Part shown: piece after piece, positions 1,544-8,303 of the stretch | Position numbering within the stretch: position 1 is the stretch's first letter | Layout: every line of letters begins with the position of its first letter | Assembly (NCBI RefSeq): GCF_050920415.1 | Contig: NZ_CP169309.1 | Strand: one strand, 5' to 3' | From: Escherichia coli | GTDB lineage: Bacteria; Pseudomonadota; Gammaproteobacteria; Enterobacterales; Enterobacteriaceae | DNA length: 64,000 nt | Position numbers and translations under genes: made by a program | The notes under the pieces: generated by a model | The model's database searches: none | Told to the model about the DNA's origin: nothing | What the model saw: only the letters and a program-made list of their open reading frames with translations

Positions 1544-3612
<2,069 letters not shown>

Positions 3613-3614
3613 AT

Positions 3615-3649
3615 AAAACGGGAGGAGAAGGAGCCTCCTGTTTTATTTT
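3615..3649. terminator. Intrinsic terminator downstream of envZ (hairpin with flanking A and T runs, likely bidirectional)
   Basis: AAAACGGGAGG (3615-3625) pairs with CCTCCTGTTTT (3634-3644) with one G-U wobble; loop 8 nt; T-run 3641-3649. Confidence 0.75.
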
Positions 3650-3775
3650 GTGCACTCAGTATCTACTGAATGAATACGGTTTCAGACATCGGCACCATAC
3701 GAAGTAAAGTGTACTGTAAGCTGATTGCAGGCTAGCGTATCCTGATTAGTAAAGGCACACTAAAGGAATAGCTTG

Positions 3776-5059
3776 ATGCAACTTACCAACGAAGAACAAG
3801 CACAGATTGCTCGTATAAAAGAAAAAATCCCACGCATTGCCGCACTGGATCCTGAATGTAAGTTATTCGGTTCTGAAGGTTGGAAATATCAATGGCCGAA
3901 GCCTGCCAGCGAGGCGGAAATAGCTTCCTGGGAGAAAAAACATAGCGTCACTTTGCCACGGGAATATCGAATTTTTCTTCGCTATATCGCTAATGGCGGT
4001 CCGGCACATGCCTACGGTCTTGAATCTTTAGGCGGTACAGATATTTATGGCGATATAACAAAAGAAAGCCCTGTACCGCTTTATATGACGCAGCAGGATG
4101 TTGATGTGTTGAATGCTGGCCGTACAGAAGATGATGAAGAATATAGTTTTTTTGACGGCGCATTGACCATTCTCACCCTGGGATGTACTTATGATATTTG
4201 CCTGGTGGTGACGGGGCAGTATCGCGGAAGGTTAATGCTGACTGATGGTGATGAAGATTATCCGTTTGATTTTATATATGATAAAAATTTCCTCAACTGG
4301 TATGAACGCTGGCTGGACGATTTTATTGCTGGCATGAGTATGAAGGGTTTCGATAGAAGTTTGCCAGGAACGCAAATTCAACTGCGTGAGTGGTTTTTAA
4401 CTGAGAAAATCCCGGATTTACGTAGATCCATTTTATTCTCGCTATGCCGTTTTCCACAGATAGAACCCGAAACTTTTGCCCTTTGGGAACATGTTTGCCG
4501 CACAGAGAATGATAAAGAATTGTGTGAAGAGGCATTCACAAGATTACGCCAAAAAAAAGGTTCTTGTGCTGCAGATATTTTTCGACTCTATTTTACAATG
4601 CCAGGTGAATTACGTGATATTGCTATTAAAGATCTCCGTTTTGCCTGTAGAGATAGTGTGGTGAATATTGAGGATTATATTCATTCACTGTTAATAATAA
4701 TGCCTGAACTTGACGATGACACTCTATCCTCAGCTGTCTTTGCTATACGAGAAACAGAGTATAATAAATATGATACTTTTCTGCCGCTTCTCGAACGTAT
4801 CACTGATGACCGTCAGCAAACATTATTGTGGGCGATGAGTAAGGCGCCTGATTTCAATGAAAGCCGAGGATTCGTTGAGTTGGTATTACCGCTTTTTGCA
4901 TCATCAAAGATGGAGAATGTAAGGAAGGCTATTTTGTTGCTCATTGAAGTTAAAGATAATCGTATTCCACCATTGGTTGATGAAGCTGCAACTCGTTTCC
5001 CTGAACTGACCATTTTACGAGAAAACTACTATCTCAGGACGTGGGGACATAAGCCATAA
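3776..5059 (+). CDS. Accessory protein: N-terminal SUKH-1/SMI1-KNR4-like domain plus about 230-residue helical-repeat C-terminal region (putative immunity-type protein)
   Basis: ATG 3776 with AAGGA 8 nt upstream (track start 3773 is TTG). Motif WEKKHSVTLPREYRIFLRYIANGG and later DGALTILTLGCTYDICLVVTG...FDFIYDKNFLNWYERWLDDF resemble the SMI1/KNR4 pattern. AT-rich with rare codons; absent at this position in K-12. Confidence 0.8.
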   Translation: MQLTNEEQAQIARIKEKIPRIAALDPECKLFGSEGWKYQWPKPASEAEIASWEKKHSVTLPREYRIFLRYIANGGPAHAYGLESLGGTDIYGDITKESPVPLYMTQQDVDVLNAGRTEDDEEYSFFDGALTILTLGCTYDICLVVTGQYRGRLMLTDGDEDYPFDFIYDKNFLNWYERWLDDFIAGMSMKGFDRSLPGTQIQLREWFLTEKIPDLRRSILFSLCRFPQIEPETFALWEHVCRTENDKELCEEAFTRLRQKKGSCAADIFRLYFTMPGELRDIAIKDLRFACRDSVVNIEDYIHSLLIIMPELDDDTLSSAVFAIRETEYNKYDTFLPLLERITDDRQQTLLWAMSKAPDFNESRGFVELVLPLFASSKMENVRKAILLLIEVKDNRIPPLVDEAATRFPELTILRENYYLRTWGHKP

Positions 5060-5096
5060 ATTAATGGTTCAGAAATGATCTAACGCGGAGAAAAAT

Positions 5097-5627
5097 ATGA
5101 TCAGGGAACATATTCAGCAAGCGATAAATAATAGGTTAGCATTTGATGGCCCATTCAATGTTGTTCCTGAACCTGCAAGCACTGCGTTTGATGGCCGGAT
5201 CCCGACATTGAAAAACGGTGTCTGGCAGAAGGCCAGCCCTATGTTGCAGGCGCGTTTTGCACATTGTGGACGTTGGTTAAGCGCTACACATGGAAGCTGG
5301 CTAAGTATAAGTGACATGGAAACGCTTTGGCAGGAACACATAGAAGATACGTTTCTTGATGAAATCAAAATGAATGCTGTAGCTTCAAGTGATAATTGGG
5401 ATAACCATGCCTTGGGACTATTTCGTTCTCATCGCCTGTCACTTTTTGCCGGTAGTGATTACAGTTATGAAATGGTTTTTCTCCTTTGGCTAGATAGTAC
5501 CGTTGAGCCAGAGGTCTGGGTTTATGACTGCAATGGGGAATCACGTTATAAAGATCTTAATGATTACCTGAATGCATATATTAATGATGACGTAAGCGCC
5601 TGTGAGCGCTCCTGGCGAGTAGAATGA
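5097..5627 (+). CDS. Accessory hypothetical protein (176 aa) whose C-terminal half resembles a SUKH-type immunity fold
   Basis: ATG 5097 with GGAG 6 nt upstream; C-terminal LFAGSDYSYEMVFLLWLDSTVEPEVWVYDCNGESRYKDLNDYLNAYIND resembles the SMI1/KNR4 C-terminal pattern. Stop overlaps the next start (ATGA). Confidence 0.6.
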   Translation: MIREHIQQAINNRLAFDGPFNVVPEPASTAFDGRIPTLKNGVWQKASPMLQARFAHCGRWLSATHGSWLSISDMETLWQEHIEDTFLDEIKMNAVASSDNWDNHALGLFRSHRLSLFAGSDYSYEMVFLLWLDSTVEPEVWVYDCNGESRYKDLNDYLNAYINDDVSACERSWRVE

Positions 5628-6250
5628 ATAGCCCCCCTTGCCCCTTTGATCCACAAACCGCACATTACCTCGGTACAGTGCAAATCCACTACAGCCCAAC
5701 CACCTTCAACGCTGCCGTTAAGCATTATACCTGTTACATTAAAAAGCGTTTTAAAGGGTTTAAATGGGGAATTGGAACCGCTGGCTTATTGGCTATATTG
5801 CCCATGATCCCACAATGGTTGAAACCTTCTCATGACTTTAAACTCAACGCAATCAGTACGTTAATTCTTCTATTAATGTTGCCACTCCTCTTATCAATGT
5901 TCCTGTTAATCAGCAGAAGAATTAACGATTTTAAGTCAAAAACAAAGCAAGTTACTTTTACGAAACCCGTGCGTTATGCGTTTTATTTCGAGGGGATTGT
6001 TTTTTATGAATCTCATCAGCAGGGCATACTTCGCTGGGAAGATTTGTATAGCATTGACTATGAAGAAGATTATTTGTGGCTTTTTCTGCATTTACCGAAG
6101 AGTTTTCCCAGAGAAGCGACGAAAGCGTTTTGCGATATTTTCATTCCCGCCAGCGCGATAAAAGCGCAGCCTGAACTGGATACGTTTTTTCGTGAAACAC
6201 GCCACTCGCTGGATTATCTGTTTGTCCCGTTTAATTCTGACAGAAAATAA
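5624..6250 (+). CDS. Accessory membrane protein, YcxB-like architecture (two adjacent TM helices then a soluble C-terminal domain)
   Basis: ATG 5624 overlaps the upstream stop. Hydrophobic segments WGIGTAGLLAILPMIPQWL and AISTLILLLMLPLLLSMFLLI, followed by FYFEGIVFYESHQQGILRWEDLYSIDYEEDYLWLFLHLPK. Confidence 0.6.
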   Translation: MNSPPCPFDPQTAHYLGTVQIHYSPTTFNAAVKHYTCYIKKRFKGFKWGIGTAGLLAILPMIPQWLKPSHDFKLNAISTLILLLMLPLLLSMFLLISRRINDFKSKTKQVTFTKPVRYAFYFEGIVFYESHQQGILRWEDLYSIDYEEDYLWLFLHLPKSFPREATKAFCDIFIPASAIKAQPELDTFFRETRHSLDYLFVPFNSDRK

Positions 6251-6283
6251 AAAATCCCCCGTATCTGGTGAAACGGGGGATTT
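6245..6283 (-). terminator. Intrinsic terminator of pckA
   Basis: Perfect stem AAATCCCCCGT (6252-6262) / ACGGGGGATTT (6273-6283); on the pckA strand the hairpin is followed by TTTTTTATTTT. Confidence 0.8.
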
Positions 6284-6302
6284 CGTCGCTTAACTTATCG
6301 GA

Positions 6303-7925
6303 TTACAGTTTTGGACCAGCCGCTACCAGCGCGGCACCCGCAGGGGTGTCGGTGTATTTATCGAAGTTGTCGATAAACAGTTTCGCCAGCGTTTCAGCTT
6401 TTTCCTGCCACTGTTCCGGAGAAGCGTAGGTGTTACGCGGATCGAGGATTTTAGTGTCTACGCCCGGCAGTTCAGTCGGGATCGCCAGGTTAAACATCGG
6501 CAGAGTGAAGGTTTCTGCGTTATCCAGCGAACCGTTGAGGATAGCGTCGATAATGGCGCGGGTATCTTTAATGGAGATACGTTTGCCAGTACCGTTCCAG
6601 CCAGTGTTAACCAGATATGCCTGCGCACCCGCCGCTTGCATACGTTTCACCAGCACTTCTGCGTACTGAGTTGGGTGCAGCGACAGGAACGCCGCGCCGA
6701 AGCAAGCGGAGAAGGTTGGCGTCGGTTCGGTGATGCCACGTTCAGTACCGGCCAGTTTGGCGGTGAAGCCAGAGAGGAAGTGGTACTGAGTTTGATCGGC
6801 AGTCAGGCGAGAAACCGGCGGCAGCACACCAAAGGCGTCTGCGGTCAGGAAGATAACTTTAGTTGCGTGGCCCGCTTTGGAAACCGGTTTAACGATGTTA
6901 TCGATGTGATAGATCGGATAAGAAACGCGGGTGTTCTCGGTTTTTGAACCATCGTCAAAATCGATAGTGCCATCTTCACGTACGGTGACGTTTTCCAGCA
7001 GCGCATCGCGACGGATAGCGTTGTAGATTTCAGGTTCCGCTTCTTTCGACAGCTTGATGGTTTTCGCGTAGCAGCCGCCTTCGAAGTTAAACACGCCGTC
7101 GTCATCCCAGCCATGCTCGTCATCGCCAATCAGGCGACGTTTCGGGTCGGTGGAAAGGGTGGTTTTACCGGTGCCGGAAAGACCAAAGAACACCGCAACA
7201 TCGCCTTTCTCGCCAACGTTGGCGGAGCAGTGCATAGAAGCGATACCTTTCAGCGGCAGCAGGTAGTTCATCATTGAGAACATCCCTTTCTTCATTTCGC
7301 CGCCGTACCAGGTGCCACCAATCAGCTGCATGCGCTCGGTCAGGTTAAACGCCACGAAGTTTTCGGAGTTCAGACCCTGTTCTTTCCACTGCGGGTTAGT
7401 GCACTTCGCACCGTTCATAACGATAAAGTCTGGTTTGAAACCTGCCAGCTCTTCATCGCTCGGGCGAATAAACATGTTTTTGACAAAATGCGCCTGCCAG
7501 GCCACTTCGGTGATGAAACGGACGGAAAGACGAGTATCCGGGTTCGCACCACAGAAAGCGTCGACAACGAACAGACGTTTGCCGGAAAGCTGTTTGGTCA
7601 CCAGGCCTTTAAGATGCTGCCAGGTTTCCGGAGAGAGAGGTTTGTTGTCGTTCTTACCTTTGCCTTTATCAGCCCACCAGAAGGTATCGCGAGTGGTATC
7701 GTCACGGACGATATACTTATCTTTTGGTGAACGACCGGTGAAGATCCCGGTATCGACGGCAACGGCACCCAGATTAGTTAACACCCCGCGCTCATAACCT
7801 GTCAGGCTCGGATCGAGCTCTTCCTGATACAGCAGGTCGTAGCTTGGGTTGTAAACGATATCATGTACGTCACTGATACCATAAGCCTCGAGTTCTTGCG
7901 GGGTCAAACCATTGTTAACGCGCAT
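6303..7925 (-). CDS. pckA: Phosphoenolpyruvate carboxykinase (ATP)
   Basis: ATG 7925 preceded by AGGAG; [36 protein letters not shown]..., P-loop GLSGTGKTT; 540 aa. Confidence 0.96.
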
Positions 7926-8303
7926 TTCACTGCTCCTTAGCCAATATGTATTGCCTGAATAGTAAAGTCTTTTTGGGGGTGTTAACCGCGACAAGGCTCA
8001 TAGATTTACGTATCTGGAGAAATTCATATTTGACAAAAAACTCCGTGATTCCTGTCACGAAACGGTTGCTATTATCGCAGAAATAGCATTTTAGGTGTGG
8101 AAAATGTTCTTAAAAGGTTAAATCTTGGTTTATATGGCGGGAATATTGTGAGTGGAATCGCATTCCTGAATGAAATTGATGCAAATTCAATCAGTAAAGT
8201 ATCGATTCACCACGCTAACTTTTTTTGATTATTTTCTGAAAAAAGCAAAATAGTACTGCCCGGATGCGATAATTAATCCACCTTTTGATTCTGGATAACT
8301 AAC

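Follow-up and report, generated by a model that had tools for sequence, protein, structure and literature searches.

A three-gene island downstream of envZ in Escherichia coli probably begins at the left boundary of a rare allele of an envZ–pckA recombination hotspot

The window analyzed here, a 64-kb stretch of Escherichia coli DNA, carries greB, ompR and envZ (2260-3612, + strand) in that order, followed by a 2.69-kb stretch and then by pckA on the − strand. The stretch between envZ and pckA, most of which constitutes the island discussed below, is 100% identical to that of strain N96, where the NCBI annotation places three + strand genes, and its GC content of ~0.40 contrasts with 0.55-0.59 in the flanks. 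The features on which the argument depends are the following (coordinates, strand where one applies, description and basis).

2260 to 3612, + strand: envZ (450 aa), from the open reading frame and annotation; its 3′ half is a divergent haplotype linked to the island
3610 to 3612, + strand: envZ stop codon, read from the sequence
3611 to 3648: predicted intrinsic terminator of envZ, a hairpin preceded by an A-tract and followed by a T-tract, from an inverted repeat and its fold
3645 to 3650: left limit of alignability among spacer alleles, from the junction alignment
3656 to 3669: 6-2-6 palindrome TCAGTA-TC-TACTGA, read from the sequence and judged a chance feature of the leader
3681 to 3710, + strand: best sigma-70-like promoter candidate, TTCAGA-N18-TAAAGT, from a weight-matrix scan; weak and putative
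3763 to 3767, + strand: Shine-Dalgarno sequence AAGGA, 8 nt upstream of the ATG at 3776 and conserved in E. albertii
3776 to 5059, + strand: gene 1, a 427-aa member of the SMI1/KNR4 (SUKH) family that has a long C-terminal extension, from Pfam and the NCBI annotation
5097 to 5627, + strand: gene 2, a 176-aa protein of no known family, annotated by NCBI as “hypothetical protein”
5624 to 6250, + strand: gene 3, a 208-aa predicted membrane protein, annotated by NCBI as “hypothetical protein”; its start overlaps the gene 2 stop codon (ATGA)
6252 to 6283, − strand: island-borne hairpin predicted to be used as the pckA terminator, from an inverted repeat, its fold and a U6AU4 tail on the − strand only
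6284 to 6302: allele-specific spacer of 19 nt separating this hairpin from the pckA stop codon; island DNA ends here on the right
6303 to 7200, − strand: 3′ part of pckA, a divergent haplotype fully linked to the island, from genome comparison; stop codon at 6303-6305

The 3′ end of envZ is occupied by an inverted repeat (3611-3625 and 3634-3648) that folds to a predicted −19.1 kcal/mol on the + strand (z −6.05) and is followed by UUUUAUUUU; with a stem-loop 1 nt past the envZ stop codon and this sequence as its U-tract tail, 3611-3648 has the predicted form of an intrinsic (Rho-independent) terminator. On the − strand the same hairpin folds to −14.5 kcal/mol, and it keeps a bidirectional shape, although no gene ends there on that strand. 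In an alignment of junctions that took in the K-12, toxin-antitoxin, IS200, A30, Salmonella and Shigella alleles, the hairpin was common to all spacer alleles as far as GTTTT (3640-3644), and similarity to K-12 had faded by 3649. The first-pass annotation had described an insert starting directly after a retained envZ terminator, and on both counts we agree with it: the hairpin is present at 3611-3648, and insert-specific DNA begins at the end of the T-run (3645-3650).

The K-12-type allele has a single hairpin in its 75-nt envZ–pckA intergenic region, with predicted folding energies of −20.3 and −20.8 kcal/mol on the two strands and U-tracts on both (tails UUUUGCUUU and UUUAUUUA). Because of the equal folding and the U-tracts on both strands, we read this hairpin as a bidirectional terminator shared by envZ and pckA, which converge on it. 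Bidirectional intrinsic terminators at convergent E. coli gene pairs were reportedly described by Ju et al. in 2019 and are also the subject of a preprint (bioRxiv 10.1101/2022.10.23.513370). The K-12-type hairpin resembles them, with an A-tract at one flank, a T-tract at the opposite flank and equal folding on both strands; in the window, by contrast, the pair is split, with the envZ hairpin serving one direction and an island hairpin predicted to take over for pckA.

The right end of the island does not mirror the left. It had been claimed that the last gene stops 1 nt before the A-run of a pckA terminator and that the insert sits exactly between two convergent terminators, and neither claim survived closer analysis. 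The stop codon of gene 3 (6248-6250) falls within the A-run at 6244-6254. The empty site has one bidirectional hairpin, and the hairpin at 6252-6283, which folds to −21.3 kcal/mol on the − strand, is followed by a strong U-tract (U6AU4) on the pckA strand alone. This second hairpin was not found in the K-12-type spacers of 4,027 genomes; it occurs only with gene 3 homologues and recurs with them in the A30, Salmonella, Shigella/E. coli and E. albertii alleles, in Salmonella with one compensatory pair (G-C to A-U). Since it is absent from insert-free strains, recurs with gene 3 and has its strong U-tract on the pckA strand only, we conclude from these comparisons that it is island cargo that would restore a pckA terminator, rather than the resident one. 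Every aligned allele differs right up to TTACAG at the pckA stop codon (6303), and allele-specific DNA therefore extends from about 3645-3650 to this codon, with 44 nt replaced by about 2,655 nt at the spacer. The 44-nt spacer of K-12 was not found in the window, even allowing 10 mismatches, which makes the island a replacement of the spacer and not an insertion between two terminators. Alignment with an insert-free junction thus upholds the left breakpoint of the first-pass annotation, here placed at 3645-3650, moves the right one to the pckA stop codon, and reveals no target-site duplication.

Among 5,426 complete E. coli genomes, the K-12-type 44-nt spacer was found in 4,027 and a RelE/ParE plus NadS toxin-antitoxin pair in 1,331; the three-gene island occurs in 18 (at least 99.1% identity), a single 346-aa HEAT-membrane gene is present in one (strain A30), and in one further strain an IS200 copy separates the envZ stop codon from the hairpin. 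There are thus at least five allele types at this spacer in E. coli. In a Salmonella enterica genome the same spot holds CdiI_5 genes together with a HEAT-like gene and a homologue of gene 3, and an allele shared by Shigella flexneri and E. coli combines a HEAT-like gene with a homologue of gene 2 (67%) and a gene resembling gene 3. The leader and gene 1 are unique to the three-gene island allele, and the leader has no similarity to any other spacer allele. As judged from these comparisons, the envZ–pckA spacer is a multi-allelic recombination hotspot, which would cycle among an empty form, a toxin-antitoxin pair and small immunity-like clusters across Escherichia and Salmonella, and every spacer allele must supply termination for both convergent core genes. 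Literature searches for an envZ/pckA hotspot or bidirectional terminator yielded no paper, and the spacer is apparently a compact hotspot that has so far gone undescribed.

The flanks of the island indicate how such an allele could move. Across 898 nt of pckA (6303-7200), identity to the window is 98.9-100% in exactly the 18 carriers and reaches 96.4% in the best insert-free genome; across 941 nt of envZ (2700-3640), the best 18 matches are the 18 carriers (96.5-100%), followed by an insert-free genome at 96.0%. The carriers are nearly identical to one another at 6550-7150 and diverge beyond, and mismatch profiles, both against K-12 and among carriers, put the right end of the shared tract near 7200. 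Farther out, at 7300-8200, 332 genomes, insert-free ones included, match at 99% or better, and among the 25 matches listed the only carriers are N96 and MFDS1022581, the rest being insert-free at 99.3%. We conclude from these profiles that the crossovers lie inside envZ/ompR and pckA. In the left flank at 900-1800, carriers rank first by a small gap (98.8 vs 98.4%); with a gap of this size, the haplotype linkage on that side could partly reflect the carriers' shared ancestry.

A second indication comes from the E. albertii type strain, in which envZ is followed by the island (amino-acid identity 92% for gene 1, 85% for gene 2 and 76% for gene 3), the island hairpin, 56 nt of the pckA 3′ end and a 73-nt internal pckA fragment, and then by a 277-nt envZ 3′ stub with its hairpin, a toxin-antitoxin allele and the full pckA. 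These stacked alleles with their core-gene stubs are, as we read the arrangement, a record of alleles that carry parts of envZ and pckA along with them. Several different contents at a single site, together with a flank haplotype linkage that decays with distance, are what exchange at a hotspot would produce, and because of this linkage and the E. albertii structure we favor homologous recombination as the route of entry. Such an entry would also account for the absence of a target-site duplication, terminal repeats and a recombinase.

One could instead envision a mobile element that inserted, by site-specific recombination or transposition, between two pre-existing convergent terminators, with the palindrome as a recombination scar. 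The boundaries are indeed sharp and adjoin hairpins, the base composition is foreign, and an IS200 copy has inserted into this very spacer in another strain. However, the empty site has one hairpin rather than two, and 44 nt of it have been replaced rather than duplicated. We found no flanking direct or inverted repeats of note and no target duplication at the island ends, and no recombinase, integrase or transposase among its three ORFs; it thus has neither the terminal repeats, target-site duplication and transposase of a transposon or insertion sequence nor the integrase and terminal direct repeats of an integrase island, and its flanks are envZ and pckA. Leader and gene 1 have no plasmid match, the leader is present once per genome and only beside envZ (an exact-pattern scan of metagenomes retrieved only E. 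albertii-like contigs with the same context), and the flanking core DNA is co-inherited with the island. Insertion as a mobile element is, on this evidence, barely credible. A heptamer, TGTGCAC, is common to the IS200 end in that one strain and to the island start; it is not conserved in E. albertii, and we regard the match as a coincidence.

We therefore propose that the region 3613-3775 is the left boundary of a rare hotspot allele that entered by recombination, contains a palindrome by chance and has a weak promoter of its own, and we consider this account as a whole probable. In the common empty allele, the homologue of the 3611-3648 hairpin would be the single terminator shared by envZ and pckA. 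In the window, DNA from ~3650 to 6302 would be allele-specific, AT-rich and foreign, comprising a 126-nt leader, an apparent three-gene operon and a hairpin of its own, the last of which would give a terminator to a pckA that has been cut off from the shared one. The allele would enter and spread through homologous recombination with crossovers inside envZ/ompR and pckA, as the flank linkage and the E. albertii arrangement suggest. An insertion between two terminators is thereby corrected to an allele replacement at a recombination hotspot.

Hotspots that lack mobile elements are known to diversify when the core genes on either side undergo double homologous recombination (Oliveira, Touchon, Cury and Rocha 2017, PMC5635113), and the envZ–pckA site is like them in several respects: many alternative contents occupy one spot between two core genes; integrase and repeats are absent, the flanks being envZ and pckA; and a recombinant flank haplotype of envZ and pckA is linked to the cargo. 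It is unlike them in that the spacer is very small and lies between the 3′ ends of convergent genes, where each allele must bring or reuse a terminator. The stacked E. albertii alleles with core-gene stubs also depart from a simple double-crossover model and represent an illegitimate variant of it. The junction itself is of little importance, being the ordinary boundary of a rare hotspot allele, and the interest lies rather in the spacer as a clean natural example of small cargo spreading via recombination in flanking core genes.

How the island genes are expressed is less clear-cut. The first-pass annotation had noted a good ribosome-binding site but no strong promoter upstream of the first insert gene, and both remarks are borne out: AAGGA lies at 3763-3767, 8 nt before the ATG at 3776 (the same start is used by NCBI in N96), and a consensus scan of 3650-3775 revealed no promoter-like site with at least 9 of 12 matches. 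The best candidate, TTCAGA (3681-3686) and TAAAGT (3705-3710), matches 8 of 12 consensus positions with an 18-nt spacer and scores 9.3 bits by a home-made and approximate weight matrix based on published frequencies; this score falls within the highest 6% of background windows and exceeds those of the best matches upstream of ompR and pckA. Both hexamers are identical in E. albertii; in two carriers the first T of the −35 is a C (CTCAGA). The three genes would most likely be transcribed at a low level from this weak sigma-70 promoter in the leader, with a start near 3717, and read-through of the envZ terminator may add to their transcription. The spacing of the genes, with a 37-nt gap between gene 1 and gene 2 and a 4-nt overlap between gene 2 and gene 3, suggests that they form one operon, and no terminator-like site was detected on the + strand between them, the sole + strand match (4370-4387) being inside gene 1.

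Alternatively, the island genes may have no promoter of their own and be reached through read-through of the envZ terminator, in which case they would amount to a facultative 3′ extension of the ompR-envZ operon. The failure of the leader to present a site with at least 9 of 12 promoter matches is consistent with this, as are the orientation of all three genes with envZ and the uninterrupted + strand between them; moreover, the A30, Salmonella and Shigella/E. coli alleles start their first gene ~26 nt past the envZ T-run, which leaves no space for a promoter. Against it, the envZ hairpin with UUUUAUUUU is predicted to be a canonical strong terminator (−19.1 kcal/mol), the several hairpin variants found among carriers, the K-12 form included, display no consistent weakening, and only this allele has a 126-nt leader, with a candidate promoter conserved in E. 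albertii. We consider exclusive read-through possible but rather unlikely, and a weak promoter in the leader remains our preferred reading. A stronger version, in which the envZ terminator is leaky by design and the island is transcriptionally coupled to the ompR-envZ operon, seems improbable to us; were it true, orphan immunity genes would be placed under the control of envelope or osmotic stress, a condition met under contact-dependent or type VI toxin attack.

The leader offered few other candidates for a regulatory element. Its RNA fold is no more stable than those of shuffled sequences (z −0.99), and a search of 3400-6500 against Rfam at E up to 1 gave no match in 3613-3775 and two matches elsewhere, both inside gene 1 and far below gathering scores. 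A 21-aa ORF at 3670-3735 was rejected as a leader peptide: it lacks a ribosome-binding site, and E. albertii has ATA in place of its ATG. We also discarded TCAGTATC as a recurring junction motif. Its second occurrence, at the beginning of E. albertii gene 3, encodes SQYL, and because SQYL is homologous to the TQYL or TAHYL of other gene 3 proteins the recurrence is not significant, given the search space.

The remaining feature of the leader is the palindrome TCAGTA-TC-TACTGA, which is located exactly at 3656-3669 as first described and is insert-specific, being missing in insert-free strains and outside the conserved envZ 3′ region. The suggestion that it is an operator or a recombination scar fared less well. 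Perfect inverted repeats with 6-nt arms and a spacer of 0-8 nt number 216 in the 64-kb window; the insert contains 7, compared with 6.96 ± 3.1 in shuffles, and the probability of at least one in the 126-nt leader is ~0.35. As RNA, the palindrome would form a stem of at most 5 bp (−4.0 kcal/mol). The orthologous E. albertii leader is ~88% identical, and the left arm of the palindrome is its most altered part (GTGCGTTC-GTATCTACTGA), with a deletion and two substitutions nearby; the same broken palindrome is found upstream of an intact 427-codon gene 1 in a metagenomic E. albertii-like contig. These conservation tests compare two lineages, E. coli and E. albertii. Given its chance frequency, the weak RNA stem, the breakage in E. 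albertii and the lack of a regulator gene in the island, the palindrome looks like a chance feature with no conserved role, and we have dropped it as a lead.

The competing interpretation would be a functional element, either an operator bound by a dimeric regulator or a small hairpin that controls the leader as RNA. The arms are perfect over 6 nt and lie right at the leader start, and if only 2-nt spacers are counted, the expectation per 126 nt is no more than 0.04 such repeats. The arms are also unbroken in all 8 of the E. coli carriers examined, the single change (in one carrier) being in the spacer; these carriers are at least 99% identical overall, so that the conservation of the arms says little, though it would be compatible with a role specific to E. 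coli. Nevertheless, with a spacer of 0-8 nt such a repeat is not rare in a leader of this length and the insert total equals the shuffled expectation, no regulator is encoded in the island, and the least conserved part of the E. albertii leader is the left arm, even where gene 1 is intact. Its position (~12 nt before the candidate −35 and ~107 nt before the start codon), its −4 kcal/mol stem and the lack of a match to any Rfam family also speak against a function, which we consider very unlikely. As judged by eye and without a formal score, the palindrome is not a LexA box, its half-sites being in the wrong order (CAG-N6-CTG), nor is the nearby TACTGTAAGCTGATTGCAG, which has 11-nt rather than 10-nt spacing.

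The cargo itself points to a role in bacterial antagonism. Members of the SUKH family are predicted to act as immunity proteins in polymorphic toxin systems, and they are found in arrays (PMC3113570). Gene 1 matches Pfam PF09346 at residues 43-152 (29.5 bits vs a cut-off of 25.4) and is named “SMI1/KNR4 family protein” by NCBI; its homologues are 92% identical in E. albertii and 62% identical in Superficieibacter, where the context is different and the neighbors (metabolic and unknown genes) are uninformative. No toxin gene adjoins gene 1 in the window, E. albertii or Superficieibacter, and for this reason we call it an orphan. A gene 2 homologue (56% identical) in Pectobacterium parmentieri is the last in the order VgrG, DcrB, PAAR-Rhs (1423 aa), homologue, and on the basis of this order it occupies the immunity position after a PAAR-Rhs toxin. 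NCBIfam and PADLOC returned nothing usable for the three proteins, the only match being a weak one to PycTM for gene 3 (E 0.0036). From family membership and gene neighborhood, the island cargo probably consists of orphan or spare immunity genes against bacterial toxins, and if these genes are protective the island would provide orphan genes for immunity to Rhs or CDI toxins.

As a recombination hotspot and as an orphan immunity cluster alike, the locus belongs to a class already described. Like described orphan and poly-immunity clusters (PMC3113570, Zhang, Iyer and Aravind 2011; PMC3482391), the island is a short array on one strand that opens with a SUKH gene and has no adjacent toxin gene; a PAAR-Rhs toxin precedes the gene 2 homologue of Pectobacterium, and the Salmonella allele carries CdiI_5 genes. 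The island differs from them in that gene 1 carries a 250-aa C-terminal extension and its immunity role is a predicted one, and in that no described immunity family includes gene 3 or the HEAT-like gene with which other alleles begin. Gene 3 represents a narrow Enterobacteriaceae family of predicted membrane proteins and is the constant 3′ module of the island, its homologues adjoining pckA in the A30, Salmonella, Shigella/E. coli and E. albertii alleles. In A30 it is fused to a HEAT-like N-terminal domain to give the 346-aa protein, and this fusion is possibly the ancestral form.

The 3' haplotypes of envZ (window 1900-3640) and pckA (6303-7200) that are linked to the island, the three-gene spacer allele lying between these two genes, are ~4% divergent from those of every insert-free E. 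coli (5,408 genomes), and a divergence of this kind from all of them suggests that the donor does not belong to the E. coli lineages that are commonly sequenced. As donor of the envZ and pckA 3' haplotypes, E. albertii is too distant (91-93%). In E. albertii NBRC 107761 (L013 7546-7950), the envZ-pckA spacer holds two alleles in tandem, namely the three-gene island and a NadS/RelE toxin-antitoxin pair; the same arrangement is also present at locus L019 (4640-5046). Between the stacked alleles lie three pieces of the flanking genes:

56 nt, stub of the pckA 3' end
73 nt, fragment of internal pckA
277 nt, stub of the envZ 3' end, including its own copy of the hairpin

E. coli A30 carries a single gene of 346 aa (L005 3566-4606), in which a gene 3-like membrane part is fused to a HEAT-like N-terminus; in Salmonella (L015 3348-3806 and 5001-5618), this A30-type 346-aa gene appears split, with CdiI_5 genes between its parts; and the HEAT gene has at its end a 23-nt segment that recurs without a mismatch where the window's gene 3 begins (5645-5667). 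The fusion, the split and the shared segment together suggest that cassettes were inserted into an ancestral gene of 346 aa or took the place of part of it. At the beginning of the leader upstream of gene 1, ACTCAGTATCTA (window 3654-3665) resembles the codons for the N-terminal SQYL / TQYL of the gene 3 proteins in E. albertii (L013 6893-6904) and Salmonella (L015 5021-5032). This likeness is probably a coincidence; alternatively, ACTCAGTATCTA could be what is left of the 5' end of a gene 3-like gene. A 183-aa database protein (P0051) matches gene 3 across half its length and also matches Pfam HATPase_c, a domain found in envZ as well; it may come from a further allele of the envZ-pckA spot, either as a fused protein or as a truncated gene call.

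The envZ hairpin is itself polymorphic among carriers of the island, with four variants (window 3620-3640 and the corresponding positions of L007-L012); two stem-top changes, which widen the loop from 6 to 8 nt, are common to L011, L012 and the window. Within the toxin-antitoxin allele (L002 640-650; 1,331 genomes), the T-run of this hairpin is overlapped by the nadS stop codon (minus strand), an overlap that would make the hairpin a bidirectional terminator for envZ and the toxin-antitoxin operon; a different hairpin belonging to this allele adjoins pckA. In E. coli ETEC1738 (L003 613-1330), an IS200/IS605-family element, with AATAAA on either side, lies after the envZ stop codon and ahead of the shared hairpin, cutting envZ off from its terminator.

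A homologue of gene 2 (56% identical) is found in Pectobacterium parmentieri CP003415 (L016 1-6525) directly after genes for VgrG, DcrB and a 1,423-aa PAAR-Rhs protein, whose final 299 residues matched no Pfam family; the PAAR-Rhs protein and the homologue may constitute an undescribed toxin-immunity pair. Within the coding region of gene 3, the window contains a perfect 13-nt inverted repeat, CGTTAATTCTTCT at 5859-5871 and AGAAGAATTAACG at 5915-5927, with arms 43 nt apart, which is longer than the leader palindrome at 3656-3669.
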